64,000 nucleotides of DNA from an uncultured Gammaproteobacteria bacterium. Its GTDB lineage: Bacteria; Patescibacteriota; Patescibacteriia; UBA9570. Below are positions 968 through 62,359 of this stretch, in pieces (position 1 is the first letter of the stretch; each line of letters begins with the position of its first letter). A program made the position numbers and the translations under genes. Location of the stretch: assembly GCA_964385285.1 (NCBI GenBank), contig CAYLOJ010000001.1, forward strand, positions 24,537-88,536, in the 5' to 3' direction. A model generated the notes under the pieces. That model was not told where the DNA came from. It saw only the letters and a program-made list of their open reading frames with translations, and did not search any database.

Positions 968-2563
968 TTAAAAGTCGATTTCGTCGAGTAATTGAGTTAG
1001 GGCGTGTTGTTCTACAGCCTCTTCAATTAGCTTTGTGTCGTGCCGTGAATCACTCACCTTAAAGATATCCATGGGTGCTCCACGATGTTGTTTTTGTGCG
1101 GGAATGCCCATAGCCTGCATAATTGTAGGTGCCATCTGCATTATCGAACTGGTCGGCATGACCTTATGGTCTACGCCGTTACCATAAGCTAAGAACATGC
1201 CCCGAGCATCATGATAGTTTTTAACCGTTTTTTCGTAAAGTGCTGCAGAATGCAATGAGCCCGACAGATAGTACTTATCTGAACTAAGAAAGACATCTGG
1301 TGAATTTGGTAATAGGGGAGCGTCGCCGTATAAGCTGTCTGCAGTAACCACCTCTTCCACTAAGGGTTTTAACTTCGCCACTACTTCATCACGTAATGCC
1401 ACTCGCTGTTCCGCAGGCACGACACCTTGGCGGAAACGTCCCTGATCATTAACATATAACATACTGGCCATTGAGCCGCGCGGGAAACCGATCTTGGTTT
1501 TAGAAAGATCTAAAGTCAAATCCAAGGTCACGTTAACGGGTACAAATCGTTTGAAGACATGATGATACAACCATTTAGCAGCCCGTTCAAGCGTACGTGA
1601 AGACTTCAGGAATTTGCGCATCCCTTTACCCACTTTGATCTGTTTACGCTGACCTTGCATGACCTCGATCTCGCGCGATAATTTTGTGTGACTTTTTTGA
1701 AAGGAACCGGTACCACTATTGGTGCTTAGATAACCTTGTTCTTCCAACCAGCGGTTCAGATAAAAAATTTCATCATAAACGCGGAAGCCATGATCTGACA
1801 TTACAAACAAGGTTGTGTCACCATCCATCTGCTCCATTACCCAGCCAATGAAGTCATCCATGAGTTCCCACATCTTCCAGGCAGGTTGATAGCCTTCACG
1901 CAACGCTTTATCGTACACGACATGGGAAACCCAGTCCGTACCAGATGACAGATAGAAAAAGAAATCCCATGGTTCATTGGTAAAAAGATCTTTAGCTGCC
2001 GCAATACGATCCGATTCTAATGCACAAAGATCCTCAATATAAGGAGTGAAGTTATTGGTGGCACGCAGTTTGGCATTAGGGGATAGTCTGTAGTTCTTGA
2101 GCGACGGGTATTTTTCCTTTAGTGATTCGGGATAAATATAGCGATCGCCTCGTGTCATCAGGCTGGTAATTGTAATTTCGGTTTTTAATTTTGGTGGAAA
2201 TGTGTTTGGCAGATTAATCAAAATCGGCTTGCGTCCATGGCGCACCATTGCCTCATAGATAGTCTCCGAGGTAATCTTTGTGCTATCAATGATATCGACA
2301 TCAGTTAGATCATTTTGAACCACTAAAAAATCTAAGCAACCATGCTGGGTGGGATATAGACCCGTCGCAAAGCTAGTCCAGGCCGGCGCGCTGTGTGCCG
2401 GATGTGTGGAGAGCATAGTGCTCGACATCCCGTGTTCCTGCATCTGCTTGATGTGTGGCAACTTCCCGGCCGCAAACATCTTATTTACTAAATCCCAGCT
2501 CGAACCATCTAAACCGATGACGACTACTTTTTTCTTTGCGGCGGAATTAACCGTGGTGTTCAT
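968..2563 (-). CDS. Alkaline-phosphatase-superfamily protein, type I phosphodiesterase / nucleotide pyrophosphatase (NPP)-like, paralog 1 of 3
   Basis: 531 aa. N-terminal VIGLDGSSWD metal-binding motif and ...HSAPAWTSFATGLYPTQHG, which matches the NPP nucleophile/TG..P..HG signature. No signal peptide or TM segment. Confidence 0.7.
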   Translation of the reverse strand: MNTTVNSAAKKKVVVIGLDGSSWDLVNKMFAAGKLPHIKQMQEHGMSSTMLSTHPAHSAPAWTSFATGLYPTQHGCLDFLVVQNDLTDVDIIDSTKITSETIYEAMVRHGRKPILINLPNTFPPKLKTEITITSLMTRGDRYIYPESLKEKYPSLKNYRLSPNAKLRATNNFTPYIEDLCALESDRIAAAKDLFTNEPWDFFFYLSSGTDWVSHVVYDKALREGYQPAWKMWELMDDFIGWVMEQMDGDTTLFVMSDHGFRVYDEIFYLNRWLEEQGYLSTNSGTGSFQKSHTKLSREIEVMQGQRKQIKVGKGMRKFLKSSRTLERAAKWLYHHVFKRFVPVNVTLDLTLDLSKTKIGFPRGSMASMLYVNDQGRFRQGVVPAEQRVALRDEVVAKLKPLVEEVVTADSLYGDAPLLPNSPDVFLSSDKYYLSGSLHSAALYEKTVKNYHDARGMFLAYGNGVDHKVMPTSSIMQMAPTIMQAMGIPAQKQHRGAPMDIFKVSDSRHDTKLIEEAVEQHALTQLLDEIDF

Positions 2564-4146
2564 AACGCAAGGTCATCAATTAAGTTGCGAAGCTGATTTT
2601 TTTCGGACTGAATAGGTGTAGGGACAAATTCCTGGGTAAACAGATCTAATACCTTACCATCGGTATGGGTAGGAATGGCAACTCCAAATTGGTGGAGAAT
2701 GGTCGGAGCCAAATCTGCAATGGAAGCATCTGCTAAGACGCCATGTTTGATCTGTGGTCCAGCCGCTAAGAAAATACCATACTCATCATGCTTGTTGGAG
2801 ATATGATGCTCAAAGATGCTCTGGGAGTGGAGATGACCAACAATCCAAACATCTTTTGTTTTGCAATGTAAATCAGGTGACGGCGTAGGAGGATTGCTTC
2901 CATACAATTCTTCTTTCGTATACACGTGCTCAGTAACGCGTTTCCCGGAAGGAGTGCGCAACGCTTCTAGTTTTGTTTTAACATCTGCGCGAATGCGATC
3001 GTATTCTGCTTTGTCTTTAATCACAGCATCAGAAAAATTTCCAGAATGATTCAAATACAGTGTTTGCAACATACTGCCACGCGGAAAGCAAACCTGAGTG
3101 CGATCAAGATCAATTCCAATGTTCACATCAAAATGAATCGGAACGAATGGCTTAATAACATGATTGTAGAACCATTTAGCTGCGCGCTCTATTGCCGGAT
3201 GGAAGAAGAGCGCTTTTAGTTGCCGCTTATTCAAGCGAATCCGTAGCCGTTTTTTTGACCGTGCGGCATCCAAACTACGTCGTCGGGCAGTAGCATTTTC
3301 CTCAAATTTACCAGCACCAGTCGTTGTCGTGAGATAACCCTGCTGTTCTAACCAACGGTTGATGTAAAACAGTTCAGTGTAGTAGGTAAAACCGTGATCA
3401 GATAGCACGTACAGCGTAATGTCTTTCGGTAGGTGTGTGTTAATCCAACCAAAGAATTCGTCAACGAGATCAAAAACTTGCATGGCGGTTGGCTCTTTTC
3501 CTTGTACCATGTCCGCAAACGCTAAATGTGAAACCCAGTCCGTGGAAGAGAATAAGAAGAAAAAGAGGTCCCACTCTTCACCCAGCAGCAGTTCTTTTAC
3601 GGCTGTTATACGATCACGCTCAATATCTACAATGTGCTGAATGTATTCTGGTAGTGGTTTGGTTAATTTCAGTGATTCATCTGGACTGAGTTTATAGTTT
3701 TTGAGCGATGGATATTTTTCCACTAAATTAGCTGGGAAAATATACTGATCGCCATAAGTCATGAAGTCCGTAATAATCGTTTGGTCTGGAATTTTCGGAG
3801 GATAGGAATTTGGTAAATTAACCAGAATTGTTTTTTTACCGGCTTGGTTTAACAGTTCGTAAAAAGTTGGTACTTTAATTTCATAACTCGTTGCCGGACG
3901 AAAATCGCGAATCGTTTTACCTGGCAAAAAGAAATCATAGCAACCATGCTTACCAGGATGTGTGCCCGTGGCAAACGTTGTCCATGCTGGCACGGTGACG
4001 GGGGGTTTTGTAGAGAGTAATGTGGAGCGTACACCACGATCAATAATGTTTTGCAGATTGGGCAATTTTCCACTGGCCAGGAGGGGATCCAGTAACTTGT
4101 AGGTGGTGCCATCTAATCCGATAACTAAAACTTTTGGAGTGTTCAT
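2560..4146 (-). CDS. AlkP-superfamily NPP-like phosphodiesterase, paralog 2 of 3
   Basis: 528 aa. VIGLDGTTYK ... VTVPAWTTFATGTHPGKHG. Collinear with paralogs 1 and 3 along the full length. 4-nt overlap with paralog 1. Confidence 0.7.
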   Translation of the reverse strand: MNTPKVLVIGLDGTTYKLLDPLLASGKLPNLQNIIDRGVRSTLLSTKPPVTVPAWTTFATGTHPGKHGCYDFFLPGKTIRDFRPATSYEIKVPTFYELLNQAGKKTILVNLPNSYPPKIPDQTIITDFMTYGDQYIFPANLVEKYPSLKNYKLSPDESLKLTKPLPEYIQHIVDIERDRITAVKELLLGEEWDLFFFLFSSTDWVSHLAFADMVQGKEPTAMQVFDLVDEFFGWINTHLPKDITLYVLSDHGFTYYTELFYINRWLEQQGYLTTTTGAGKFEENATARRRSLDAARSKKRLRIRLNKRQLKALFFHPAIERAAKWFYNHVIKPFVPIHFDVNIGIDLDRTQVCFPRGSMLQTLYLNHSGNFSDAVIKDKAEYDRIRADVKTKLEALRTPSGKRVTEHVYTKEELYGSNPPTPSPDLHCKTKDVWIVGHLHSQSIFEHHISNKHDEYGIFLAAGPQIKHGVLADASIADLAPTILHQFGVAIPTHTDGKVLDLFTQEFVPTPIQSEKNQLRNLIDDLAL

Positions 4147-4155
4147 AATACGGAA

Positions 4156-5742
4156 TTATATCTCAATTTGATCTAGTATAGATTGCATGGCATGCTTTTC
4201 TGAGCGTTGTTCATACTGCACGGTAGTATCCGTTTTAAAGACTGGCAAAACACTGCCGTCGACATAATCTGGTACAGCCAAGGTCATGTCATGCAGGATT
4301 GTGGGCATAACACTGGCAATCTGTTGTTCTGGCAAGGTTTGGGCTTTAATGCCATCCCCATAGGCTATAAACATGCCAACAGAACCATGCTTGCTAGAAA
4401 TTTCATCGATAAATAATTCACTGGAATGAAACTGCCCGACAAACCAATAATCTCCGAATTCATAGAAGAGATCCGGACAACGTTCCGGTGTGTGGTCTCC
4501 ATAGATCTCTTCCTTAGTGTACACTTTAGGAGTAACCGGTTTGCCATCTGGTCCAGTTAAATTTTCCAATTTCGTTTTGATTTCTGTACGTAGTGATAAG
4601 TATTCATCATCGGTCATTGGTTTACCCTGTTTGTATTTACGGCCATCATTGATATAAATTGCGGTCATGGTACGGCCTTTAGGAAAACAAACCCGCGTCT
4701 GTTCAAAATCAATGGTAACGTCTAGATTAATGCGAATTGGCAAAAACGGCTTAGCGACTTTGTGATAAAACCACCGTGCAAGCCGCTCAATCGGTTTAAC
4801 TACACTCAATGCGCGCATCATGCCACTGCTGACGTGAAATTCATATTTTTTTTGCTGTTGCAACGCACTGCGCTGATCATCTTGCTTACTAATATTTTGA
4901 TGGAATTGCGTCGCACTGGCTGCCTTCGTAGTGAGATATCCTTCTTGCTCTAACCACTTATTAAAATAAAATGTGTGTTCATATACCTTGAAGCCATGAT
5001 CAGATAGGATATACAGGTGTGTATCTGTAGGAAGATGATCTACAAACCATTTTAGCTGGTCATCAATATACTTGAATAATTCATAGGCTTTTGGAAAGGA
5101 TCCATCCATTAATTTACTGAACATGGCGTGGGAGATCCAATCAGTCGATGAAAAGAGGTAATAAAAGAGATCCCAGGGTTCTTGTTGCCACAGCTGTTTA
5201 ACCGCTTCCATGTGGTCCTTCTCTAAGGCAATAATATCATCAACGTACTCGCTGTATTTTCCCTTGACGTTCAACTCCTCATCAGGGGATAAGCGATAGC
5301 GCTGCAAAGCAGGATATTTGGATTTAAGCGATTCTGGAAATACACAATTATCTCCGACGGTCAGCATGTCAGTGATAATGGGGCTATTTAATTTTGGTGG
5401 ATAGGAGTTTGGGAGGTTGATTAAAATAGATCGTTTGCCGCGTTGGTGTAGAAGTTCATAGATTGTCTCGACTTGAATGTGACTACTATTGCAGAGATCA
5501 AATTGTTCTAAATCTTCCGTCGGCAACAAAAAATCATAGCAACCATGTTTGCCCGGGTTAACGCCAGTCGCAAACGTTGTCCAGGCCGGTGCAGTATATG
5601 GAGGCATGGTGGAACGCAAATCCGCCCGAGTACCTTCCGTACACAGGCGCTGCAAGGTTGGCATATAGCCTTGTTGCATTAACGGGTCTAACAAACTGAA
5701 TGTCGCACCGTCTAAACCAATAACTGCGATTCGTCTTGCCAT
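4156..5742 (-). CDS. AlkP-superfamily NPP-like phosphodiesterase, paralog 3 of 3
   Basis: 528 aa. VIGLDGATFS ... YTAPAWTTFATGVNPGKHG. Same domain architecture as paralogs 1 and 2. Confidence 0.7.
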   Translation of the reverse strand: MARRIAVIGLDGATFSLLDPLMQQGYMPTLQRLCTEGTRADLRSTMPPYTAPAWTTFATGVNPGKHGCYDFLLPTEDLEQFDLCNSSHIQVETIYELLHQRGKRSILINLPNSYPPKLNSPIITDMLTVGDNCVFPESLKSKYPALQRYRLSPDEELNVKGKYSEYVDDIIALEKDHMEAVKQLWQQEPWDLFYYLFSSTDWISHAMFSKLMDGSFPKAYELFKYIDDQLKWFVDHLPTDTHLYILSDHGFKVYEHTFYFNKWLEQEGYLTTKAASATQFHQNISKQDDQRSALQQQKKYEFHVSSGMMRALSVVKPIERLARWFYHKVAKPFLPIRINLDVTIDFEQTRVCFPKGRTMTAIYINDGRKYKQGKPMTDDEYLSLRTEIKTKLENLTGPDGKPVTPKVYTKEEIYGDHTPERCPDLFYEFGDYWFVGQFHSSELFIDEISSKHGSVGMFIAYGDGIKAQTLPEQQIASVMPTILHDMTLAVPDYVDGSVLPVFKTDTTVQYEQRSEKHAMQSILDQIEI

Positions 5743-11964: not shown

Positions 11965-12893
11965 TGCAACTGACGTGTGATGACAGACTTTACAGTGTAG
12001 GGTCGACGATCCTGGGTGTAATAGGATTTAGCCAGTACTTCAGCTAACAAGCCACTGATAAAGAGTTGTAACCCCCCTAAGATTGATAACACCGCTACTA
12101 ACGGCCAGATGCTAGTGGATAGCGGATAAGCCCAACCAATGCGCATCACGGCTAGTACTAGCAGTAAAGCGCTACCGGCAGATACCATCACTAAACCCGC
12201 TCCGCCAAATAGATGCAGTGGTCGATACGCGTAGTTTCTCCAAAACCACAGCCCAAGCATATCGATGAATCCTCGAAAGATGCGTTCTGCTCCATATTTT
12301 GTGATTCCAGCAGTGCGAGGTTGATGATTAACTTCGACCTCACCAACAGAAAATCCGTTTAATCGAAGAATGGCGGGAATAAAACGGTGGCTTTCACCAT
12401 GCAAATCCACATCTACGAAGCAAGTTTTTCTATATACCTTCAATGTGCAACCGGAATCATGGATGCCATCATTCAAAAAAAATGTTCGCAGCCAATGGGC
12501 TCCGCGCGAGGTAAAGCGCTTAGCAATGCTATCACGACGGTGCTTTCTCCAACCTGACACAACGTCTAAGTTGTGAGTTTCTAAGTAAGTCAATAATTTC
12601 GGGATCTCCTCCGGGGGGTTCTGTAAGTCTCCATCGAGTGTAATAAGTAGCTCTCCTTGTGCCTGTTTAATGCCTGCATCGAGCGCGGCAGTTTGACCAA
12701 AGTTTTTACGTAATGTGATTACCGTGATTGGGGATAGTGTCTGCAACAACTCCGCTGTCCCATCAGTACTGCCATCGTCGACAAAAATAATTTCATACGG
12801 TTTGGCTAATTGTGTCATTACAACTACAACTCGACGATGTAATTCGCTTATATTCGGTTTCTCATTATAAACTGGGATGATCACGGTATACAT
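11961..12893 (-). CDS. Polyprenyl-phosphate sugar synthase (DPM1/ArnC/GtrB-like GT2) with C-terminal TM helices
   Basis: MYTVIIPVYNEKPNI...IIFVDDGSTDGT...TLRKNFGQTAALDAGI...LDGDLQNPPEEIPKLL, plus two C-terminal hydrophobic helices. Confidence 0.8.
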   Translation of the reverse strand: MYTVIIPVYNEKPNISELHRRVVVVMTQLAKPYEIIFVDDGSTDGTAELLQTLSPITVITLRKNFGQTAALDAGIKQAQGELLITLDGDLQNPPEEIPKLLTYLETHNLDVVSGWRKHRRDSIAKRFTSRGAHWLRTFFLNDGIHDSGCTLKVYRKTCFVDVDLHGESHRFIPAILRLNGFSVGEVEVNHQPRTAGITKYGAERIFRGFIDMLGLWFWRNYAYRPLHLFGGAGLVMVSAGSALLLVLAVMRIGWAYPLSTSIWPLVAVLSILGGLQLFISGLLAEVLAKSYYTQDRRPYTVKSVITRQLQ

Positions 12894-12916
12894 AAAACAT
12901 GCAAACTATAACACTA

Positions 12917-12945
12917 TTGCGCCATTTTGGCAAGCCCGATATACT
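12917..12945 (+). promoter_or_regulatory. Sigma70-like promoter TTGCGC-17-TATACT, 6 nt upstream of ATG 12952
   Basis: -35 12917-12922, -10 12940-12945. Confidence 0.35.
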
Positions 12946-12951
12946 AGTCGT

Positions 12952-14406
12952 ATGCATAATCTTAAATGGTTGCGGGCTGCGCTGATAATTGCAGGAGTGC
13001 TGAGTTGTGTTTGGATCGTTTACCTATATTTTGGTGGAAATGGCACACTCACCCTAACCTATCAATTTAATGGTACCGGGCAGTGGATCTCTAATTTTCA
13101 ACCGCATGGGAGAGCGCTCGATCTTGAACAAAACCAAGAGAATGGCGAGACGTATCAGCGGTTAGTGGGCGAGCCTACCTATTTTACCGTTACATTACCG
13201 AGCGCCTATGACTCTGTGGAAGTAGCTTTAGAATATCAGAATCCTAATCAAACTCTTATCGAGTTAGGATTAAAGCAAACTACAAACCCAGATTTGTTTG
13301 ATTACCAGATGCAGCCGGTGGAAAATAAATTAGTCGACGCAAGCGAATGGGATAGAGTTGAAAATGATGAATATGTTTTATTGCAGAAGGAACCAATATA
13401 TTCCTCTGTGGAAGAGTTTCTCATCAATCCACCTTTAGATAAACAGGTTGGCACGTATTTAGGGGTCGCACTACCAAATTTTATTGATACCTCATACACG
13501 CCAAATGACGAGCTGTTTAGCGATGTGTCGGTGACATTGCGCGGACGTCATGAATTTTATGCGTACGCGGCAGCAGGAGAGGAAATGCAGTTTTCAGTTT
13601 CGTTAGACACGATCGATTATATCGCGGGGAGTGATACGGCCACGGTTAGTCTATGGCAAGGTAATTCAGTGCTCGGAGAATCCTCAGTGAATAATCACGG
13701 CACGGCCCAACTTGAGGTTAGTGCACCAATGACCGGGGTGTATAAACTCGTAGTGGCAGCTTCCGATGATTTTTTGATCACACACCTACATTCTACGCAG
13801 GAACGACTCGTTGTTGGTAGTGCGATGCATTTGGCTGGTTCAGAAGAGTATCAGGCGAGTGAGGTTCCAATCAATACAGAGCCTACTCTCGTTAACTCCA
13901 ACGCTAGCTGGGTAACATTCATCGCCAAGCATTCCTACGGAGTGGGTAGCTATACAATGTACAACGGAGATTTTGCCGTCAACAAAGTCGATGCACCATC
14001 CACCTGGGTGAATCCCATTGCAAACGCGCATTTTAATTTTGTAGCGCCACAGAATGATCTGTATCTACAAAGTGATAGCTATTTTGCGCTCCCAGGGGCA
14101 ATCGAGTTTGATCCCTGGTTTGGCTTCCGTACAATATCAAGGTATAGCAATGGCGAACATTTGGATTATGTGTTGAGTAAACACTACACTCAGCCGGAAC
14201 GGTTGCGTGGCTGGACTTCAAGCCAAGTTACATTTGATCTTTCTACGGTCACACAAGATCAACCAAATACATTGCAATTTATGTTGTCTGCCCCAGGAGT
14301 CGAAACAACCCCAGAAGGTCTGAAAGTTAGACGCATCACCATTAATGCTAAACAACACGCTTTAACGCTATCCTATCTATGGGAAAAATTATTTGGCGCG
14401 AACTAA
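12952..14406 (+). CDS. Hypothetical membrane-anchored extracytoplasmic protein (N-terminal TM/signal anchor, ~480 aa)
   Basis: Start moved to ATG 12952 (MHNLKWLRAALIIAGVLSCVWIVYLYF), which sits right behind a -35/-10 promoter. No recognisable catalytic motif. Confidence 0.45.
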   Translation: MHNLKWLRAALIIAGVLSCVWIVYLYFGGNGTLTLTYQFNGTGQWISNFQPHGRALDLEQNQENGETYQRLVGEPTYFTVTLPSAYDSVEVALEYQNPNQTLIELGLKQTTNPDLFDYQMQPVENKLVDASEWDRVENDEYVLLQKEPIYSSVEEFLINPPLDKQVGTYLGVALPNFIDTSYTPNDELFSDVSVTLRGRHEFYAYAAAGEEMQFSVSLDTIDYIAGSDTATVSLWQGNSVLGESSVNNHGTAQLEVSAPMTGVYKLVVAASDDFLITHLHSTQERLVVGSAMHLAGSEEYQASEVPINTEPTLVNSNASWVTFIAKHSYGVGSYTMYNGDFAVNKVDAPSTWVNPIANAHFNFVAPQNDLYLQSDSYFALPGAIEFDPWFGFRTISRYSNGEHLDYVLSKHYTQPERLRGWTSSQVTFDLSTVTQDQPNTLQFMLSAPGVETTPEGLKVRRITINAKQHALTLSYLWEKLFGAN

Positions 14407-14570: not shown

Positions 14571-15290
14571 ATGAAAGGTATTATTTTAGCAGGTGGTAGC
14601 GGCACACGGTTGCAGCCATTGACCAAGGTTACCAGCAAACAGTTGCTGCCGATCTATGATCAACCGATGGTTTTTTTTCCATTGCAAACATTGATTCAAG
14701 CAGGTATTCGTGAGGTGTTGTTTATTGTAGCGCCGGAACACGCCGGTGATTTTTTGAATTGCTTGGGTTCTGGTGCTCAATTCGGCTGTCGTTTCACATA
14801 TGAGATTCAAGACAAACCGGCCGGATTAGCTCAAGGATTATCTCTGGCCGAGACATTTGTAGGCGAAGATAGTTGCGTGCTTATTTTAGGTGATAATATC
14901 TATGAGCACGACTTTAGTAAGGCAGTTAAAGAGTTTACTTCCGGTGCCCATATCTTCGTAAAGCAAGTTCCTGATCCAGAACGATTTGGTGTGGTGGAAT
15001 TAGACGAAAACATGCATGTGTTATCAATTGAAGAAAAACCAGCCAAACCCAAAACCAACTACGCGCAGACCGGAGTCTATATTTATGACGAACACGTATT
15101 CGATCTAATCCGTACGATGAAACCCTCAGCTCGTGGTGAGTTGGAGATTACCGATTTGAATAATCTCTATCTCTCTAAGGGCGTACTGACAGCGAGTGTA
15201 ATTACCGGTGAATGGATTGATGCTGGTACATTAGAAAGTCTCTTTAAAGCTGCAGAATTCAGACGAAAACTAGTATTAAAACAATCTTAG
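14571..15290 (+). CDS. rfbA: Glucose-1-phosphate thymidylyltransferase (short form)
   Basis: MKGIILAGGSGTRLQPLTKVTSKQLLPIYDQPMV... nucleotidyltransferase signature. Followed by rfbC, rfbB and rfbD. Confidence 0.85.
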   Translation: MKGIILAGGSGTRLQPLTKVTSKQLLPIYDQPMVFFPLQTLIQAGIREVLFIVAPEHAGDFLNCLGSGAQFGCRFTYEIQDKPAGLAQGLSLAETFVGEDSCVLILGDNIYEHDFSKAVKEFTSGAHIFVKQVPDPERFGVVELDENMHVLSIEEKPAKPKTNYAQTGVYIYDEHVFDLIRTMKPSARGELEITDLNNLYLSKGVLTASVITGEWIDAGTLESLFKAAEFRRKLVLKQS

Positions 15291-15293
15291 TTT

Positions 15294-16616
15294 ATGTCTA
15301 CTGAGCGTCCACCGAGGTTGAATGTTCCTGCAGTTGAAAGTGTTGGCACTGAACCTAGACCAGAAGCGACTCGAGAGATGGTCCAAGTAATTAATGAGTT
15401 GGTAGCAGCTGTGCCCGCGGAGACTATTGAAGTTGCTCGATCCGCTGCTACTTTACGTAGACAGTTACTAGAGCGCAGAATGCATGACAATCCAGCGGCG
15501 AAAGAAATTCATCATACTGCATTGCAGGATCTCATAACTCGTGAGGGTATTAATAATGATGACTATGAAATGGGACGCATTCTTGCAACTGTTCCGTCAG
15601 AATCATTCCCAAGTGGTTTGCAAGCAAAGCGGCTTTTATTGCGCGAGCGATTAATTGATCCGATTGATCAAGCAATTGCGGAAAACAGCACGTTAAAAAA
15701 GTTCTTTCCAGACCCACGCCTCCATCAAGCAGATCTATATCAGATTTCATACGACTATGCCTTAGCTATCAGCCGTTTAGATTTAAAGCGCGACAAAGGT
15801 CGTGATAGTTTGACTGGGCTGATTAATGACCAAGGTTTTTTAGCGGAAATTTTTGAGGCCAATCTAAAGTTGTTGGCTTTGCTAGAAGGGGATAGGGCGA
15901 TGGCAGTTTTTCGGATTGATCTTGATGGTTTTAAAGCTGTGAATGAACGGTACACCCACTCCGCTGGAGATAGAGTTTTAAAAGAGTTCGCCGATCAGTT
16001 ACGTTTGAAATTCAAGCGCACATTTGACACCATGAGTGTAAACCCAGAAAGCGATCAATATAGCTTAGATGGTCGGCCAGGTGGCGATGAGTTCGTATTA
16101 ATGGTGAATGACATTAATATGTCTAGCGACCCTGCTATCAGCAATGCTGATTACGAACATTATCCGGACGATTTATTACAAAGGTACGGTATCGGTAATC
16201 GCGCGATCTTTGGTATGGCCAAGTTAATCGCTGAAGCTGCAGCCGCAGTGCACATGCCAGATGGTTCTAAATTAACTGCTTCGGTTGGTTTTGCCCGCAT
16301 TCATCAGGAAGAGGCTTCCCGTATGCTGTACGGTCGGAAAGGGTCAGAATATGATCGTCGTAACTTTTCCTTTTACAATCATGCCGCTGATTCTGCTGCT
16401 CAATATGCTAAAGAATGGGGCGATGGCATTGCGTATGAATGGACGCCACGTTATGAGCCTGTGCCCATGACATTTGAACGCCTTTTAAAGAAAGGGATCA
16501 AGCGTTTTAATCGTGATCACCCGAGCATTCCCGTGGATGAAGAGATTATGACGATGTTGCAAGATCAGGCAACGTTGCTTGTTCAAAAATACGCGCAGTT
16601 AGCTGAGAAAAAGTAA
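15294..16616 (+). CDS. GGDEF-domain diguanylate cyclase (no recognisable sensor domain)
   Basis: RIDLDGFKAVNERYTHSAGDRVLKEFA ... RPGGDEFVLMV ... ASVGFA. Intact GG(D)EF active-site motif and conserved N..D guanine-specificity pair. About 190 aa of unknown N-terminal region. Confidence 0.75.
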   Translation: MSTERPPRLNVPAVESVGTEPRPEATREMVQVINELVAAVPAETIEVARSAATLRRQLLERRMHDNPAAKEIHHTALQDLITREGINNDDYEMGRILATVPSESFPSGLQAKRLLLRERLIDPIDQAIAENSTLKKFFPDPRLHQADLYQISYDYALAISRLDLKRDKGRDSLTGLINDQGFLAEIFEANLKLLALLEGDRAMAVFRIDLDGFKAVNERYTHSAGDRVLKEFADQLRLKFKRTFDTMSVNPESDQYSLDGRPGGDEFVLMVNDINMSSDPAISNADYEHYPDDLLQRYGIGNRAIFGMAKLIAEAAAAVHMPDGSKLTASVGFARIHQEEASRMLYGRKGSEYDRRNFSFYNHAADSAAQYAKEWGDGIAYEWTPRYEPVPMTFERLLKKGIKRFNRDHPSIPVDEEIMTMLQDQATLLVQKYAQLAEKK

Positions 16617-16622
16617 TTACTA

Positions 16623-17153
16623 TTGATGGATACAAATGCTATGCAAATAACTAAACAGGATTATCAGCCCCGACCACAAATTGAAGGAGTGAAAATTGTG
16701 GAGCTTAAAGTCTTTCGAGACGACGGTGGATATTTTTTTGAAGTTGGTCGCTTCAATCAACATCTCTTTGAACATTTTCCGGAATTTGAATTAAAGCAAT
16801 TGAATTTATCAGAGATGGACCCAGGTGTGATCAAAGCCTGGCACATTCACAATACCCAGGACGATATTTGGTTTGTACCCCCAAGTCAACGTATGCTGGT
16901 GTGTTTAAGAGATATTCGCGAAGGCTCTACCACTAAAGATGTGACGATGCGAATGGTGATGGGTGGAGGAAAAGCACAGTTGGTATTTATTCCGCGTGGT
17001 GTTGCTCATGGCGCTGCAAATGTATGGAATCAACCGGCGATGATTTTTTACATGGTGAATAACCAGTTTTCTGCTGACCCTATATTAAGCGACGAATATC
17101 GTTTACCTTGGGATCAGTTTGGTGCTGAACTTTGGCAGCAAACCAAGGGCTAA
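16623..17153 (+). CDS. rfbC: dTDP-4-dehydrorhamnose 3,5-epimerase (cupin)
   Basis: IEGVKIVELKVFRDDGGYFFE... matches the RmlC N-terminal pattern. Cupin His/Lys region WHIH. Confidence 0.75.
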   Translation: MMDTNAMQITKQDYQPRPQIEGVKIVELKVFRDDGGYFFEVGRFNQHLFEHFPEFELKQLNLSEMDPGVIKAWHIHNTQDDIWFVPPSQRMLVCLRDIREGSTTKDVTMRMVMGGGKAQLVFIPRGVAHGAANVWNQPAMIFYMVNNQFSADPILSDEYRLPWDQFGAELWQQTKG

Positions 17154-17154: not shown

Positions 17155-18162
17155 ATGAAATTACTAGTCACCGGGGGGGCGGGATTTATTGGATCCAATT
17201 TTATTCAGTACTGGTTAAAACACCATCCTAAGGATAGTGTGGTTAATTTAGATAAACTTACCTACGCCGGCAATGTTGAGAATTTAGTCGAAGTCGCACA
17301 TAATAATAATTATCGGTTTGTGCAAGGTGATATCTGTGATCCAGAAGTTGTGAATCCATTAGTCTATGAAGCTGATCTGGTCGTGCATTTTGCCGCTGAA
17401 TCCCATGTGGATCGCTCTATTACATCGCCCGGTGAATTTATTCGTACAAATGTCCAAGGCACACAAGTATTACTGCAGGCAGCTGTAGAGTACACGAAGC
17501 GATTCCATCATGTTTCTACTGATGAGGTGTTTGGAAGTCTACCGTTACATTCATCCGCCAAATTTAATGAGTCCACGCCCTATGCACCGCGCAGTCCATA
17601 TTCGGCATCCAAAGCAGCTTCAGATCACATTGTACGCGCTTATCACGAAACATTTGGTTTACCAATTACTATTAGTAATTGCAGTAATAACTACGGTCCT
17701 TGGCATTTCCCCGAGAAATTTATCCCACTAGCCATTACAAATATTCTCGCGGGCAAGCCAATACCAATTTATGGTCAAGGCGTAAATGTACGTGACTGGC
17801 TATATGTAGAAGATCATTGTCGGGCCATTGAGACAATTTTGCTTAACGGCGTAATCGGTGAGACTTACTGCATCGGCGGCAATGCCGAAATTGATAATTT
17901 AACTTTAGCAAAACAACTAATTCACTTAATGCATAGTGATGAATCGCTGCTGCAATTTGTGACTGATCGGCCAGGCCATGACCTGCGCTATGCAATGGAT
18001 TATGGTAAGTTGCAGCGTACATTGGGTTGGGAGCCAAGTGTTGATTTAACTACAGGATTACAGCGTACAATTGATTGGTTTGTGTCGCACCGGGATTGGG
18101 TTGAACGCTGTACCAGTGGAGCGTACCAAACTTACTACCAAGCTCAATATGGCCAACGCTAA
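17155..18162 (+). CDS. rfbB: dTDP-glucose 4,6-dehydratase
   Basis: MKLLVTGGAGFIGSNF...YAGN...GDICD...YSASKAASD (SDR, Rossmann GxxGxxG, YxxxK). Start at ATG 17155, immediately after the rfbC stop. Confidence 0.9.
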   Translation: MKLLVTGGAGFIGSNFIQYWLKHHPKDSVVNLDKLTYAGNVENLVEVAHNNNYRFVQGDICDPEVVNPLVYEADLVVHFAAESHVDRSITSPGEFIRTNVQGTQVLLQAAVEYTKRFHHVSTDEVFGSLPLHSSAKFNESTPYAPRSPYSASKAASDHIVRAYHETFGLPITISNCSNNYGPWHFPEKFIPLAITNILAGKPIPIYGQGVNVRDWLYVEDHCRAIETILLNGVIGETYCIGGNAEIDNLTLAKQLIHLMHSDESLLQFVTDRPGHDLRYAMDYGKLQRTLGWEPSVDLTTGLQRTIDWFVSHRDWVERCTSGAYQTYYQAQYGQR

Positions 18163-19006
18163 GATTGTTATTCTTGGTGCCAATGGGATGCTCGGACATG
18201 CATTACTGCATGCCTTTAAGGACAAGAACCCGATTGGACTACGTCACTCCGATTTAGACATTACACAACGGGCTGCAGTTATAAAAAAAATCTCTGAATT
18301 GCAACCGTCAGTCATTATCAATGCCGCGGCCTATACCAAGGTCGATGATTGCGAAACCAATCAAGTAGTCGCGAATAAAGTAAATGGTGAAGCACCCGGA
18401 TTTTTAGCCGAAGCAGCCAAAGCTGTAAATGCAACATTAGTACAGTACAGTACAGATTATGTCTTTTCCGGGCAAAATTCAGCAGGGTATGCAGAAGATA
18501 GCGAACCCGGTCAGCCGGTTAATGCTTATGGAGCGAGTAAGTTATTAGGAGAGAAGAATATCGTTCAACAGGTTGATGCACAATGGTCAAATTACTACAT
18601 CATTCGAACATCATGGCTTTTTGGTAATGATGGGCCAAATTTTGTGGACACAATGCTAAAATTAGGCCTAACCAAGCCAGTGTTAAAAGTGGTGAATGAT
18701 CAGCATGGAAGCCCTACCTATACAAATGATTTGGCAGTAGCTACACGTTCGATTTTGGATCAGCAGTTGCCTGCCGGAATTTACCATGCGACGAATAGTG
18801 GGGATTGCACTTGGTATGAATTTGCACAAGAGATATTTCGGCTAGCTCAATTATCAGTGGTCGTCGAGCCCTGCAGTAGTTTGGAATTTCCTCGACCAGC
18901 TAAACGCCCTGCTTTTTCGATGTTACGAAATACAAAAATCTCAGCTCTACCCACTTGGCAACAAGCCCTAGCGACTTATTTGTCGGCGCGCAGTGGTAAG
19001 GCATAG
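18149..19006 (+). CDS. rfbD: dTDP-4-dehydrorhamnose reductase
   Basis: MANAKIVILGANGMLGHALL...NAAAYTKVDDCE...YGASKLLGE. Start set to ATG 18149, overlapping the end of rfbB. Confidence 0.85.
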   Translation: MANAKIVILGANGMLGHALLHAFKDKNPIGLRHSDLDITQRAAVIKKISELQPSVIINAAAYTKVDDCETNQVVANKVNGEAPGFLAEAAKAVNATLVQYSTDYVFSGQNSAGYAEDSEPGQPVNAYGASKLLGEKNIVQQVDAQWSNYYIIRTSWLFGNDGPNFVDTMLKLGLTKPVLKVVNDQHGSPTYTNDLAVATRSILDQQLPAGIYHATNSGDCTWYEFAQEIFRLAQLSVVVEPCSSLEFPRPAKRPAFSMLRNTKISALPTWQQALATYLSARSGKA

Positions 19007-19890
19007 GCGCCTTCAGCCTCCATCCAGTTCAGCTCATCCGATTCCACGTCATACCATAACGCGGAGACAGGAGTGGTGTGCTCAGCAATGACCTGGTCGC
19101 TGTAGTGTGTTGCGGCACGCGAATCGATCAGGTGTATCTCCTGGCCCTTGCTGTAGGCAAGATATGGAGTACTGCCAATCCAGGCGGCTGCAGAAATAGG
19201 TGTGCTTAGACGAATGATCGTTTCGCTATTGCTGGTGTGCAAATCAACACGCTCCAATGCAAATTGACTAACTAGTAGCATTGCGTCAGCGCGATCGGTG
19301 TATTGAATGTCTTGTGCAATTCCCAACTGACGACTTTGAATGATATTTCCACTTTGTGTTAATAACTGCACAACGCCAGACTGCCGATTTAAAACTGCAA
19401 TGGTAGATGAATCCACCGGTAAGATTTTGGTCTCATCTTTTAGAATTTCGAGTTGGGATACTGCAGCTTGAAGCGCAATCGACAAGCTATCTACCTCCAC
19501 TTCAAGCGGAGCTTTTTTCTTAGTTTGCGCTGGCTTTGTTAGTAGTGGCCAGAGTCGAAGTGGCTCAATAAGAAGCGTAGTATTGGGTTCAACTGTGAGT
19601 TCGAGATTTACCGGTTGATAGTTTGGTGCTTCAACATGTAAATGATAGATTCCTGGCAGTAGGTGCGTAAAGCTGGCTTGATGTCCGTGGTCGCTTGTTC
19701 CGACTGGCAATAACTGGATCAGCACATCATCCTTGGGTTCGACTGCAATACGAATGCTGCCAGTGGGTTGCAATTTCCAAGTATGAAAATTAAAACCATA
19801 GCCAGCACTATACAATAAAATAGCGGTCAAACCGACAGCAGACAGGCAAAATACCGCTAGAAAGATGAGTTGACGTACCCGCTTAGACAT
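18976..19890 (-). CDS. Membrane-anchored PEGA-domain-like protein
   Basis: N-terminal TM (LIFLAVFCLSAVGLTAILLY), then IRIAVEPKDDVLI...LPGIYHLHVEAPNYQPV PEGA-like beta-sandwich motif. Start set to MSKRV (19890), which sits 9 nt behind a TACAAT -10. Confidence 0.5.
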   Translation of the reverse strand: MSKRVRQLIFLAVFCLSAVGLTAILLYSAGYGFNFHTWKLQPTGSIRIAVEPKDDVLIQLLPVGTSDHGHQASFTHLLPGIYHLHVEAPNYQPVNLELTVEPNTTLLIEPLRLWPLLTKPAQTKKKAPLEVEVDSLSIALQAAVSQLEILKDETKILPVDSSTIAVLNRQSGVVQLLTQSGNIIQSRQLGIAQDIQYTDRADAMLLVSQFALERVDLHTSNSETIIRLSTPISAAAWIGSTPYLAYSKGQEIHLIDSRAATHYSDQVIAEHTTPVSALWYDVESDELNWMEAEGAYALPLRADK

Positions 19891-19898
19891 CGTAGACT
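19870..19898 (+). promoter_or_regulatory. Sigma70-like promoter TTGACG-17-TAGACT, 8 nt upstream of murA ATG 19907
   Basis: -35 19870-19875, -10 19893-19898. Lies inside the 5' end of the divergent PEGA gene. Confidence 0.45.
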
Positions 19899-19899
19899 C

Positions 19900-19926
19900 A
19901 TTGTACATGGCTAAGTTTATTATACA
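19900..19926 (-). promoter_or_regulatory. Minus-strand promoter TTGTAT-15-TACAAT, 9 nt upstream of the PEGA-gene ATG (19890)
   Basis: -10 is the rc of 19900-19905, the -35-like hexamer is the rc of 19921-19926. Lies inside the 5' end of murA, so the divergent promoters interlock. Confidence 0.3.
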
Positions 19927-25650: not shown

Positions 25651-26943
25651 ATGGAGATGGAAAAAATAGTATCCCTTGCTAAGCAACGTGGGTTTATCTA
25701 CCCAGGTAGCGAGATTTATGGTGGGTTAGCCAATTCCTGGGATTACGGCCCGCTTGGAGCGCAGATGCGCATGAATATCAAGCGAGCTTGGTGGCGCGAT
25801 GTCGTAGAACAACGCATGGACATGTATGGTTTGGATGGTGCCATTTTAATGAATCCAAAAGTCTGGGAAGCCAGTGGACATGTCGCTACATTTCATGATC
25901 CGTTAGTTGAATGCGCAAAGTGCCGACATCGTTTTCGTGCGGATCAAATTTCTAGCACTAGCTGTCCGGATTGCGGCGGAACCTTATCTGCTCCGCGAGA
26001 ATTTAATTTGATGTTCAAAACTCAGATTGGCCCGGTCAGTGAGCAAGGTACCACGGTCTATTTGCGACCAGAAACCGCCCAGGCCATGTTCGTCAATTTT
26101 AAGAATGTCATGCAATCGATTCGTCCGCGCTTGCCATTTGGGTTAGCACAAATTGGTAAAGCCTTTCGCAACGAGATTACGCCCGGGAATTACATTTTCC
26201 GCACACTCGAGTTTGAACAAATGGAAATCGAATATTTTATTGAGCCAACGGATTGGGAAAGTACCTTTGAAACTTGGAAGCAGTGGATGTTGAACTGGGC
26301 GAAAAGCATTGGTATTAATCTTGAAAAAATGCACGAACTGGAAGTGCCAGCCGAAGAGCGCGCACATTATTCCAAGCGCACTGTTGATTTTGAATTTGAT
26401 TTCCCCTTTGGTCGCAAAGAATTGTGGGGGTTGGCCTATCGCACTGATTTTGACCTGAGTAATCACAGCCAAGCCTCTGGTGAAAGATTAGAGTACACCG
26501 ATCCAATGGATCCAAAGCGTCGTTTCGTTCCTCATGTGATTGAACCGACCATGGGTGTAGATCGTACATTGCTGGCAATGTTAATCAGTGCCTATGATGA
26601 AGAAGAGGTGAATGGCGAAACTCGTGTCGTATTGCGTCTGACCAAAGAGATGGCGCCTTATCAAGTAGCCGTTCTTCCGTTATCCAAAAAAGACGAGTTA
26701 AAGGCCGTAGCGCAGCCGCTATATGCCCAGCTGATCAAATCATTCCGCTGTGAGTACGATGAAACCCAAAGCATTGGGAAACGCTACCGCCGTCAGGATG
26801 AAATTGGCACACCATTTTGTATCACTGTTGATTTCGATTCATTAAATGATCAGCAGGTGACAATTCGTGAACGTGATTCAATGCAACAAATTCGTTTGCC
26901 TTTAAACCAAGTAATGACTTATCTCCATGAGCACGGTCTCTAA
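25651..26943 (+). CDS. glyQS: Glycine--tRNA ligase, alpha2 (archaeal/eukaryotic-like) type
   Basis: [24 protein letters not shown] signature. Class-II motifs and a C-terminal anticodon-binding domain. Confidence 0.9.
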
Positions 26944-28204
26944 AAAAGTATTGTCAAATAAGCTAACCGTTTTAACCATTCCGCAGCCAGGCACAGAAAC
27001 CGTAACGGTCATGGTGCTGGTACCCGTAGGTTCGCGTCATGAAAATCCAAGTAATAATGGGATTTCGCATTTCTTAGAGCACTTAATGTTTAAAGGTACG
27101 GAGCGTCGTCCTAGTACCTTAGAGCTGACCAAACAATTAGACGCGGTTGGTGCTGAGTACAATGCCTTTACCTCAAAAGATATCACGCTTTACTATATTA
27201 AGGTCGCAGCTAATCAATTGGAATTAGCATTAGATCTCTTTTCTGACATGTTATTCCACTCACTGTTTGACCCTGCTGAAATTGATCGCGAGCGGGGAGT
27301 GATTTTGGAAGAACTCAATATGTACGAAGACAACCCTTTGATGCATGTTGATACGGTGTTTGAGATGTCGTTGTTCGGAGAGCATAATCCCATTGGTTAT
27401 GATATTGGTGGTAAGAAAGATAATATCCGTAACTTGCCACGCCAAGCTTTTATTGATTACAAAAAACGTCACTATTCTCCGGCCGCTATGCATCTTGTGA
27501 TTGCTGGTAATATTGATAAGCGCGCTAACAAATGGATCAAACAGTACTTTGCGGATCAACCAGCCGGCAAAGGCAAACCATCCTTTGAACGGTTTAAATC
27601 GTATCAGCATAAGATTCAGTTTCGTCACAAATATAAAGATACACAGCAAACTCAAATTGCATTAGGTGTTGAAGCAATTGGATTAAAACGCCCACAAGAT
27701 ATGGCTACCTTATCTGTGCTCTCGACTATCCTAGGTGGAAATATGAGCTCTCGTTTGTTTATCTCTATTCGCGAACGACAAGGCTTATGCTATGTCATTC
27801 ATAGCGATGTTAGTCCCTACGTGGACACTGGCGCATTGATGATTCAGGCGGGTGTAGACAATCAGCGTGTAGAACCGGCAATCGTAGCAATTGTTGAAGA
27901 GTTAAATAAAATTAAAGGTGAATTAGTCAGTACGGAGGAACTGCACAATGCACAGACCTGTATCGTTGGGCACACAGCTTTGAAAATGGAGGATTCTTCA
28001 GCGCTTGCGGGCTTCTACGGTAAACAGTCTGTATTGTTGGGAGAAATGCGCACACCTAAGCAAAAACTAGCCATGATCAACCAGGTCACACGTGAAGATA
28101 TTCGACGAATGGCTCAACATTTGCTAAAGTTAGAAAAGTTAAATATTGCTAGCATTGGCCCTCAATCTTCGCTTACGGGGGTGGCTAAGCAACTAAGTCT
28201 ATAG
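26927..28204 (+). CDS. M16-family (pitrilysin/insulinase-like) zinc peptidase
   Basis: [11 protein letters not shown] inverted HxxEH zinc motif. About 425 aa with the two-domain M16 layout. Confidence 0.85.
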
Positions 28205-54059: not shown

Positions 54060-54500
54060 ATGAACACAACGCGGCCCACGATTGATCAATATTTCATCAA
54101 TATCGCTAGCGTTGTTGCCACCCGCGCCACATGTGACCGTGCTCACATCGGCGCGGTTTTGGTTAAAGACAAATATATTATTTCCACAGGCTACAATGGC
54201 GCTCCCCACGGGTTAGCCCATTGCGATGAAGTAGGTCACGAGATGGACAATGGTCACTGCGTGCGCACAACCCATGCTGAGCAAAATGCTATTATCCAGG
54301 CGGCTGTGCATGGAAGCTCCACGGCGGGTGGGACATTGTATACTACACACTCTCCTTGCAAAATCTGCACCAAGATCATTTTGAACGCACGTATTCAAAA
54401 AGTTGTCTCAAAAGAAATTTACCGCGACCCTTCCATTAAAGAAATGTTTAAAGAAGCGGGCGTAGAATTTGTTGTGGTTGAACCCACTGTCCAGGTATAA
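54060..54500 (+). CDS. dCMP deaminase (ComEB-like cytidine/deoxycytidylate deaminase)
   Basis: Zinc motifs HAEQNAI ... SPCKICTKII. Confidence 0.85.
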   Translation: MNTTRPTIDQYFINIASVVATRATCDRAHIGAVLVKDKYIISTGYNGAPHGLAHCDEVGHEMDNGHCVRTTHAEQNAIIQAAVHGSSTAGGTLYTTHSPCKICTKIILNARIQKVVSKEIYRDPSIKEMFKEAGVEFVVVEPTVQV

Positions 54501-54509
54501 ATCAGTTAT

Positions 54510-55055
54510 ATGATTATAGGATTAACCGGAGAAAAGTTAGCAGGCAAGGGAACAATCGCAGAGTACCTAGAGAAATACCACAATGCTAAAGTATTACGCT
54601 TTTCACGACCCCTATCTGATATTTTGCTTCGAATTGGGCAGCCAAATACACGCAAAGAATTAGTTGCTCTTGGAACATATTTACGGGAACGCTTTGGAGA
54701 TGATGTACTTGCGCAAGTAGCCGCCCGTGATGCAGCCACCCTTACGGGGTTAGTCGTCATCGATGGCATGCGCTACAAAGCTGAATACAACATTTTTTCC
54801 AGGTTGCCCAACTTTTATTTGTTGAACGTTACGGCTCCGTTAGAAGTGCGCTATCAACGCACACAGCAGCGCAGTGAAAAAGTGGACGAACAAGCAATGA
54901 CGTTAGAGGAGTTCACACGCCGTGAGCAAGATGCTACTGAGCAGGAGATTGCAGCCGTGCAAGCAATGGCTCACGCCAAAATGAATAACATTGGTTCCTT
55001 TGAAGAGTTATATCAACAGGTCGATCAATGGCTCGCTACCTTGCCACAGTCCTAG
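54510..55055 (+). CDS. P-loop nucleotide kinase (dNMP-kinase / CoaE-like fold)
   Basis: MIIGLTGEKLAGKGT, a GxxxxGKGT adenylate-kinase-like Walker A. 181 aa. Confidence 0.45.
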   Translation: MIIGLTGEKLAGKGTIAEYLEKYHNAKVLRFSRPLSDILLRIGQPNTRKELVALGTYLRERFGDDVLAQVAARDAATLTGLVVIDGMRYKAEYNIFSRLPNFYLLNVTAPLEVRYQRTQQRSEKVDEQAMTLEEFTRREQDATEQEIAAVQAMAHAKMNNIGSFEELYQQVDQWLATLPQS

Positions 55056-56740: not shown

Positions 56741-56758
56741 TCATGCTAATCTCATAGT

Positions 56759-57397: not shown

Positions 57398-57803
57398 AAA
57401 ATTACTTCCCGAGGCAACTCTGCCGCAGTATGCACACGATACCGATGCTGGCATGGACCTCTGCTCAGTCGAACAGTTAACTGTCCACCCGCAGGAGCGC
57501 GTATTAGTGAGTACTGGAATCGCATTGGCAATACCCACTGGTTACGTTGGACTAGTGTGGGATAAATCTGGAATTGCCACAAAAACAGGGTTAACCACAT
57601 TGGCAGGGGTAATTGATTCTGGCTACCGCGGTGAACTTAAAATTGCCTTGCTCAACACTAGTACTGAGAATTACACAATCGTGCCAGGTCAAAAAATCGC
57701 ACAGCTGCTCATTCAACCCATTATGCATCCTGTTTTGCGGGAAGTAGATAGCCTACCGGCGACAGAACGGGGTGATGGTGGTTTTGGCAGTACGGGTCTA
57801 TGA
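57381..57803 (+). CDS. dut: dUTP diphosphatase
   Basis: AGMDLCS...GVIDSGYRGELKIALLNTS...GQKIAQLLIQP. 17-nt overlap with tmk. Confidence 0.92.
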   Translation: MNLAIKKLLPEATLPQYAHDTDAGMDLCSVEQLTVHPQERVLVSTGIALAIPTGYVGLVWDKSGIATKTGLTTLAGVIDSGYRGELKIALLNTSTENYTIVPGQKIAQLLIQPIMHPVLREVDSLPATERGDGGFGSTGL

Positions 57804-58507: not shown

Positions 58508-58509
58508 CC

Positions 58510-59902: not shown

Positions 59903-59911
59903 ACTGACCTC

Positions 59912-62354: not shown

Positions 62355-62359
62355 CACAA

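Follow-up and report, generated by a model that had tools for sequence, protein, structure and literature searches.

The window analysed here is a stretch of 64,000 nucleotides (64 kb). The named relatives closest to its GyrB come from Patescibacteria group bacteria, at 83% identity, and from Candidatus Kerfeldbacteria, at 78%, which marks the source as a Kerfeldbacteria-like Patescibacterium and a member of the candidate phyla radiation (CPR). It carries a dTDP-rhamnose (rml) operon in which an open reading frame (ORF) at 15294-16616 on the plus strand, encoding a GGDEF-domain protein of 440 amino acids, lies between rfbA and rfbC-rfbB-rfbD. By its sequence and fold this protein belongs to the GGDEF superfamily. 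Within it, it represents a family that has not been described before and that is restricted to one small clade of Patescibacteria, ultra-small bacteria that here resemble Kerfeldbacteria. The family, here called type A, is tiny: 5.8 billion proteins yielded eight clusters at 45-62% identity, and 1.84 billion proteins yielded four representatives at E<1e-30. We refer to the position between rfbA and rfbC as the slot. The genes of the operon are the following.

14571-15290, plus strand: rfbA/rmlA-like glucose-1-phosphate thymidylyltransferase, 239 amino acids (PF00483, 1.2e-61; best match TIGR01207)
15294-16616, plus strand: GGDEF-domain protein gene, the type A slot gene (ORF list; GGDEF matches in Pfam and NCBIfam)
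16626-17153, alternative TTG start at 16623, plus strand: rfbC/rmlC-like cupin, similar to dTDP-4-dehydrorhamnose 3,5-epimerase (PF00908)
17155-18162, plus strand: rfbB/rmlB dTDP-glucose 4,6-dehydratase (TIGR01181, 469 bits, cut-off 365)
18149-19006, plus strand: rfbD/rmlD dTDP-4-dehydrorhamnose reductase (TIGR01214, 287 bits against a cut-off of 224)

All four rml enzymes are present in the window, and their genes are contiguous except for the GGDEF gene. RmlB and RmlD pass the NCBIfam equivalog cut-offs, while RmlA (293.7 bits for TIGR01207, cut-off 360.65) and RmlC (54.6 bits for PF00908, cut-off 27; best NCBIfam match TIGR01221 at 47.6 bits, cut-off 155.75) pass those of Pfam only. The original prediction, a reading of the DNA that preceded this analysis, had described this gene order as tightly packed, and the junctions agree: rfbA and the GGDEF gene are separated by 3 nucleotides, the GGDEF gene and rfbC by 6-9, rfbC and rfbB by 1, and rfbB and rfbD overlap by 14. 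Between 14750 and 19006 the plus strand shows no terminator-like site. The GGDEF gene resembles its neighbours in GC content, and no direct or inverted repeats flank it. Given these short gaps, the lack of an internal terminator-like site, the matching composition and the absence of flanking repeats, the GGDEF gene is likely to be co-transcribed with rmlA-C-B-D. The lack of repeats and the matching composition also led us to reject the insertion of the gene by a mobile element.

Domain architecture and catalytic residues

The GGDEF protein matches Pfam PF00990 with 49.2 bits (cut-off 23.8) and TIGR00254 with 58.4 bits (cut-off 37.4). The PF00990 match covers only profile positions 3-94 of 161; it stops halfway because two insertions, D279-R303 and R343-F358, interrupt the GGDEF domain. 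An AlphaFold2 model calculated from the eight-sequence family alignment, with a mean predicted local distance difference test score (pLDDT) of 80.8 and a predicted template modelling score (pTM) of 0.79, consists of a disordered N-terminus (residues 1-22), six helices (24-164), the GGDEF domain (approximately 165-384) and a tail with two helices (394-439). A Foldseek search of the PDB with this model returned GGDEF proteins exclusively, with target-normalised template modelling (TM) scores of 0.73-0.81 to the isolated domains 4zvh, 4urs, 3ign and 6eib; the whole GGDEF fold is therefore present in the predicted model. The features of the protein are arranged along the gene as listed below.

15360-15785, plus strand: N-terminal all-helical domain, residues ~23-164 (AlphaFold2 models)
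15786-16445, plus strand: GGDEF domain, residues ~165-384, with three insertions (Foldseek, PleD alignment)
15918-15971, plus strand: substrate and metal-binding residues D209, D211, F213, K214, N217 ... D226 (PleD alignment)
16017-16028, plus strand: RxxD I-site motif R242-T-F-D245 (aligned to the I-site of 6zxm and to PleD R359/D362)
16029-16064, plus strand: insertion 1, T246-S257, 12 amino acids, between RxxD and the GGDEF strand (PleD alignment)
16074-16094, plus strand: active-site motif R261-P-G263-G-D-E-F267 (PleD alignment, family alignment)
16128-16202, plus strand: insertion 2, D279-R303, ~25 amino acids, with invariant D286, H289, P291, D293, G299 and G301
16320-16367, plus strand: insertion 3, R343-F358, 16 amino acids, with invariant M344, L345, Y346, G347, Y353 and F358
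16410-16424, plus strand: K373-E-W-G-D377, in which K373 corresponds to PleD K442 and D377 replaces PleD R446
16446-16613, plus strand: C-terminal tail, residues ~385-440, with a conserved P..VP.T motif and two helices (family alignment, AlphaFold2)

Residue equivalences were taken from an alignment to the GGDEF domain of PleD, the sequence of which was checked against the PDB. Residues D209, D211, F213, K214, N217 and D226 correspond to PleD D327, D329, F331, K332, N335 and D344, respectively; R242 and D245 correspond to R359 and D362 of the RxxD I-site, R261 to R366, G263-F267 to the GGEEF motif (G368-F372) and K373 to K442, with D377 in place of R446. The R261-P-GGDEF motif is invariant in the eight type A sequences. 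The guanine pair N217/D226 is canonical in the window protein, and the position of PleD D344 is Asp in seven of the eight type A sequences and Asn in the remaining one (P0004). The Asp at the R446 position is the sole departure from the canonical catalytic residues in the window protein; this position is variable (K, R or G) among the ordinary GGDEF proteins of the same alignment. The RTFD motif (R242-D245) is invariant in the eight members of type A, and HMMER pairs it with RKSD of PDB entry 6zxm. In the window protein it stands 17 residues before the GG, instead of the usual 5, owing to the 12-residue insertion that follows it. No transmembrane segment was found in the protein, where the maximum 19-residue hydropathy is 1.24, and no PAS, GAF or REC domain was found in it with Pfam and NCBIfam. 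Judged by these residues, the window protein is probably catalytically intact and is predicted to be a soluble synthase of cyclic di-GMP (c-di-GMP).

This anatomy extends and in one respect corrects the original prediction. The intact RxGGDEF site and the N...D guanine pair that it described map to PleD as set out above, the insertion of about 13 residues that it placed before the GGDEF motif is present with 12, and the hydropathy and domain scans agree with it that transmembrane, PAS, GAF and REC regions are lacking. Its statement that the protein has no RxxD I-site was mistaken at the level of the motif, since R242-T-F-D245 is invariant and aligned with RKSD of 6zxm and R359/D362 of PleD. 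Insertions 2 and 3, the helical C-terminal tail of ~55 residues and the Asp at the R446 position had been overlooked, and the N-terminal region, given as ~190 residues and unrecognised, is indeed unrecognised but measures ~165 residues.

The N-terminal domain, modelled on its own, reaches a pLDDT of 86.1 and includes a helix that runs into the GGDEF domain. It contains the strongly conserved stretch FFPDPxLHxADLYxISYxY (residues 137-155), within which F138, P139, H144, A146-Y149, S152 and Y153 are invariant. The domain has no family in Pfam or NCBIfam; its profile gave noise only against PDB sequences (best E 1.6), and Foldseek found no match to its model in the PDB at E<0.3, with TM scores below 0.4.

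An insertion similar to insertion 1 also occurs in two GGDEF proteins of unrelated gene context, P0162 and P0146. The former, a GGDEF protein of 209 amino acids from a farmland metagenome (L037 3724-4807), adjoins RimK-like ATP-grasp genes and carries both insertions 1 and 2 of type A; these two insertions are therefore not unique to the rml-linked family.

Occupancy of the slot in related loci

A GGDEF gene lies between rfbA and rfbC in 12 distinct related loci (15 were fetched), with flanking proteins down to ~70% identical. Wherever the slot is filled in these 12 loci, its gene encodes a GGDEF protein, and the ORF is intact and full-length in 12 distinct lineages. Lack of synteny in close relatives, which would have marked the gene as a lineage-specific insertion, is therefore not seen in most relatives. 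The original prediction proposed to check whether the order rfbA-GGDEF-rfbCBD is conserved; the placing of the gene between rfbA and rfbC recurs in these 12 loci, one relative has an empty slot, and the content of the slot falls into three types.

Type A genes are found in every member with a readable contig (L001, L002, L003, L013 and L035) in the order rfbA-GGDEF-rfbC-(NUDIX)-rfbB-rfbD-x-murA-ctpA-rplI-pyrG. In five further loci (L007-L011) RmlA is 91-93% identical to that of the window, and the same position is occupied by a GGDEF protein of 381-394 amino acids, which we call type B. Between the window and L007 the neighbouring proteins are 51-93% identical, while the slot gene gives no tblastn match and diverges faster than any neighbour; by BLASTP the window protein and type B share 29% identity over 86 residues of the GGDEF core only. 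Type B, again a tiny family, is also present in L014 and L033, and it is without the insertions and has the canonical RxxD spacing. A third type (type C: P0059 in L036, P0060 in L039, and relatives) fills the same slot between rfbA and rfbC and shows the sequence variants FKxEN and GHxGVDRD. The layout of a helical N-terminal region, a GGDEF domain and a helical tail is common to all three types. In domain-wise profile comparisons with hhalign, types A and C are homologous in their N-terminal domains (94%, E 1e-7) and in their tails (96%, E 4e-9), and no homology of type B to A or C was detectable outside the GGDEF domain.

In one locus, L012, RmlA is 84% identical to that of the window and the surrounding synteny is the same, but the slot is empty, the rfbA stop overlapping the rfbC start as ATGA (L012 6700-6725). 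This resembles a slot cleanly deleted in nature, or one still in its ancestral state. The locus is nested within the clade, and its empty slot indicates that the GGDEF gene is dispensable for the rml pathway. In more distant relatives of rfbA the rml genes are ordered differently and a GGDEF gene is lacking.

We compared the distribution of the types with a neighbour-joining tree of the concatenated RmlA, RmlC, RmlB and RmlD proteins (1063 columns). The type A loci of the window and L001 group with the type B loci L007 and L011 at 100% bootstrap, joined next by the empty L012 at 95% and then by L033 (type B) at 95%; L014 (type B) groups with L002 and L013 (both type A) at 100%, and L036 (type C) with L003 (type A) at 100%. 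The types are interleaved on this tree, and slot type is therefore incongruent with the flanks. The transition is sharp in the DNA as well: pairs of A and B loci are ~70-80% identical in nucleotides outside the slot, as far as the rfbA end on one side and the rfbC start on the other, and ~45% identical, which is effectively unaligned, inside the slot gene. The slot behaves like a cassette, holding one of three very divergent GGDEF types, occasionally empty, and exchanged or sorted independently of its flanks. The simplest readings of this pattern are recombinational exchange between conserved flanks or the sorting of ancient alternative genes. We considered whether types A and B might be fast-diverged orthologues, as a full-length hhalign probability of 96.9% could suggest, and rejected this on the lack of A-B homology outside the GGDEF domain and the interleaving of the types on the flank tree.

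Identity between types is 18-28% among the 17 slot proteins, no more than their identity to PleD (~27% between the window protein and the PleD GGDEF domain), and yet 16 or all of the 17 agree at 18 positions. About 13 of these are known GGDEF positions, namely the LTG turn and the residues that correspond to PleD D327, F331, K332, N335, R359, D362, G368, G369, E370, E371, G416 and K442; no role is assigned to the remaining five (V205, M270, G332, A368 and R407). D209, F213, K214 and N217 are kept in all 17 proteins, as is GGDE, and in the I-site the Arg is kept in 16 and the Asp in 17. The kept positions are mostly catalytic or belong to the I-site, and this is our strongest argument that selection maintains nucleotide and metal binding together with the I-site; it speaks for an active cyclase with product feedback rather than a degenerate receptor. 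The three-type cassette also serves as a natural experiment that shows which residues a GGDEF enzyme cannot do without.

Some further observations concern the surroundings of the slot. In one subclade, to which the window does not conform, rfbC and rfbB are separated by a NUDIX hydrolase gene, a second accessory gene of the operon (L002 2695-3201; L003 9915-10454; L014 3252-3755; L036 7935-8474; L039 2586-3113). The L039 NUDIX protein has an NDP-sugar hydrolase N-terminal domain (PF28549), and the L002 copy has a weak PADLOC match (PDC-S07, E 8e-6). In L035 (5259-7342), where the type A protein (P0058) is more divergent than any other, the called rfbA has only 163 amino acids and rfbC is missing; operon decay or an assembly problem is possible. 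In a distant Patescibacteria metagenome-assembled genome the genes glyS and peptidase M16 flank a gene for a simple GGDEF protein of 318 amino acids, which has an AKxxGR motif and the canonical spacing of RxxD (L004 9725-10681); in the window glyS and the peptidase M16 gene overlap (25651-28204) with no GGDEF gene between them. We rejected the L004 protein as an ancestral form, its homology to the window protein being limited to the GGDEF domain. Its neighbours are only 35-50% identical. In all relatives the rml operon is bracketed by two fast-evolving but conserved membrane-anchored proteins without Pfam domains, found in the window at 12877-14406 (plus strand, 509 amino acids) and 18976-19908 (minus strand); homologues of the latter in L035, L036 and L039 have a PEGA domain. 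Both are candidates for surface proteins linked to the glycan.

c-di-GMP components and other genes of the window

The search for further c-di-GMP components covered the window, which is only part of the genome. Pfam scans of essentially all ORFs of the 64 kb found no EAL, HD-GYP, PilZ, T2SSE_N/MshEN or second GGDEF domain, a six-frame motif scan of the window for MshEN and PilZ signatures gave a single antisense chance match, and Rfam identified no c-di-GMP riboswitch there, one tRNA being the only Rfam family. The original prediction had likewise reported no EAL, HD-GYP or PilZ gene in this stretch.

Upstream of the rml operon, on the opposite strand, lies a glycan assembly cluster with four family 2 (GT2) and one family 4 (GT4) glycosyltransferases, a Wzx-like flippase, a PMT-like protein and three PF01663 paralogues. 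The latter (968-5742, minus strand) are tandem proteins of ~530 amino acids from the type I phosphodiesterase/nucleotide pyrophosphatase family of the alkaline phosphatase superfamily; they adjoin the glycosyltransferase genes, occur also in L007-L010, and show no sign that we could see of acting on cyclic dinucleotides. Elsewhere in the window, a protein of 1731 amino acids (41066-46261, plus strand) has a PP2C phosphatase domain at about residues 110-340 as its sole recognised part. Genes for dCMP deaminase, dTMP kinase, dUTPase, NadE, a NadD-like protein, NadA, NadC and NadB follow one another at 54060-62262 (plus strand); de novo NAD synthesis and deoxythymidine triphosphate (dTTP) supply are notable for a CPR genome, and those of the genes that provide dTTP supply the pathway in which RmlA works. 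A protein of 495 amino acids with PD-(D/E)XK/Cas4-like and RNase_H_2 domains is encoded at 62282-63784; its listed start overlaps tRNA-Pro (62282-62355), and the true start is probably downstream of it.

Proposed function and comparison with known systems

We consider it fairly probable that the slot gene encodes an operon-coupled, active diguanylate cyclase with I-site feedback, held in a cassette-like position. As a soluble enzyme it would convert two GTP to c-di-GMP, and product feedback through the RxxD I-site is probably retained. The gene would be transcribed, and probably translationally coupled, with rmlA-C-B-D, such that the amount of enzyme would follow the expression of the rhamnose pathway; a functional link to glycan precursor supply is suggested by gene order. 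Every GGDEF enzyme needs to dimerise, and the helical N-terminal domain and C-terminal tail may control this step, either constitutively or through a ligand or partner. The target of the c-di-GMP would lie outside the window, presumably as a receptor elsewhere in the genome, or may be found among the adjacent glycan assembly proteins. To our knowledge almost nothing is known about signalling in Patescibacteria, which have small genomes. The recurring slot and the conservation of catalytic and I-site residues point to a simple connection of c-di-GMP with the production of envelope glycans, one that can be put to the test; if the protein proved inactive or unlinked to glycan, it would be one more orphan GGDEF protein.

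Several observations weigh against this proposal. PleD R446 contacts phosphate; its equivalent is Asp or Asn throughout type A, and that of R366 is Gln or His in type B. Insertion 1 parts the RxxD motif from the GGDEF hairpin, and with a pLDDT below 50 at residues 242-263 the geometry of the I-site and hairpin cannot be judged from the model. The rml operon of L012 works as a unit without the GGDEF gene, and co-transcription in the window is read from gene spacing alone. No phosphodiesterase, receptor or riboswitch was found within the 64 kb to complete a c-di-GMP circuit.

The protein might instead serve mainly as a receptor for c-di-GMP (or GTP), or as a scaffold, that senses nucleotide at the I-site, the active site or both and regulates Rml enzymes or the neighbouring glycosyltransferases by contact in the manner of YdaK, PssE and PelD. 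The RxxD motif kept across the three types (R in 16 and D in 17 of 17), the R446-to-Asp change and the fast-evolving helical parts at both ends, which would suit a protein-protein interface, are all compatible with such a role, as is the location within a glycan-related operon, which recalls those of YdaK and PssE (PMC5422440). Yet the known receptors have degenerate active sites. Such a receptor combines a non-catalytic site with an intact I-site; in the slot protein the I-site motif is intact and the active-site residues are all retained bar the R446 position. GGDE and the metal, phosphate and guanine residues are retained in 17 or 16 of 17 proteins at an overall identity of 18-28%, a pattern that is difficult to account for unless the proteins catalyse or at the least bind GTP, and the window holds no second cyclase to supply a ligand; we therefore regard a receptor or scaffold as doubtful. 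A different view takes the slot as a cassette of a conflict or variable-surface locus that holds a rapidly diversifying signalling enzyme, exchanged by recombination and directed at phage, host or competitor, with the rml position acting as a recombination-permissive site between conserved flanks. Incongruence of the three types with the flank tree, divergence that is confined within the gene borders and exceeds that of any neighbour, and the loss of the gene in L012 would all follow from it. Against this, the slot gene is always a GGDEF gene in the 12 loci, which argues for a function tied to the rml operon; its composition is native, there are no mobile-element repeats and no effector-like partner gene lies alongside. 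An anti-phage defence role was rejected, as PADLOC gave no match at E<=0.01 for types A, B and C or for the flanking unknown proteins. We give the conflict cassette only a slim chance.

The product might also be another nucleotide, either cyclic GMP-AMP (cGAMP) or cyclic di-AMP (c-di-AMP), as made by Hypr-type enzymes, or one derived from a different nucleoside triphosphate such as dTTP, which the neighbouring RmlA would consume. The unusual insertions beside the active site, the R446-to-Asp change and the Asn at the D344 position of P0004 could be taken in this sense. However, the N217/D226 pair of the window protein is canonical. Hypr GGDEFs are defined by Ser or Thr at the position of GacA Ser348, which corresponds to PleD D344, and exchange of this Ser for Asp turns GacA into a pure diguanylate cyclase (PMC6456294); the window protein has Asp (D226) there. 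Pyrimidine nucleoside triphosphates have moreover been argued to be too short for the GGDEF site (PMC6456294). The Hypr alternative raised in the original prediction thus finds no support, and we consider a non-canonical product improbable. That the gene is a decaying or functionless remnant seems to us hardly credible: sequence conservation between relatives is very low and L012 has lost or never had the gene, but intact full-length ORFs persist in 12 lineages, catalytic residues are selectively retained, and many residues are invariant within type A, those of the insertions included.

Returning to the active cyclase, a more specific version of it can be formulated, although we think it unlikely. 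The slot gene could encode a locally acting cyclase that is gated by a partner or metabolite, its variable helical parts and insertions docking on or sensing the rhamnose-glycan machinery (a dTDP-sugar, an Rml enzyme or a glycosyltransferase), and the three types could be co-evolving signalling alleles of a surface-glycan locus. If so, a reduced Patescibacteria genome would have in it one of its few modules for second-messenger signalling.

Our searches of the literature turned up no report of a GGDEF gene placed inside an rml operon, and nothing on c-di-GMP signalling in Patescibacteria beyond counts of diguanylate cyclase genes. The domain call itself is not new, as IMG already labels one fragment as a 'diguanylate cyclase (GGDEF)-like protein', and unknown N-termini are a very common feature of GGDEF proteins. 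With the canonical diguanylate cyclases (the GGDEF domains of PleD, WspR, DgcZ and DosC) the window protein has in common the fold (Foldseek TM ~0.8), the GG(D/E)EF motif, the metal-binding Asp, the K332/K442 lysines, the N335/D344 guanine pair and the RxxD motif. It differs from them in its three insertions (12, ~25 and 16 amino acids), in the placing of RxxD at 17 rather than 5 residues, in the Asp at the R446 position, in an unrecognised helical N-terminal domain where the others have REC, CZB or globin domains, and in an additional conserved helical C-terminal tail. The Hypr enzymes (Geobacter GacA, Bdellovibrio Bd0367) have the same fold and, like the window protein, a GGDEF rather than a GGEEF motif; 6d9m, a fusion of a Geobacter GGDEF domain with T4 lysozyme, is among the Foldseek matches.

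The closest parallels in gene context come from surface-polysaccharide loci. PelD of P. aeruginosa is a GGDEF-domain receptor encoded in a surface-polysaccharide cluster and has an intact RxxD I-site. YdaK (B. subtilis ydaJ-N) has been described as a 'degenerated GGDEF' protein, and PssE (L. monocytogenes pssABCDE) is likewise a degenerate GGDEF protein, each encoded in an exopolysaccharide operon (PMC5422440). As in these systems, a GGDEF protein with an intact RxxD motif is encoded here within a surface-polysaccharide cluster, which suggests local control of glycan production by c-di-GMP. YdaK, PssE and PelD are degenerate, non-catalytic and mostly membrane-anchored, and are encoded with a synthase or glycosyltransferases, whereas the window protein has an intact active site, is predicted to be soluble, and is encoded inside a nucleotide-sugar precursor operon, between rmlA and rmlC. 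What is new in comparison with the described enzymes is the N-terminal domain, the three insertions, the conserved tail, the fixed slot in a precursor operon, and the cassette-like diversification of that slot in a CPR clade.

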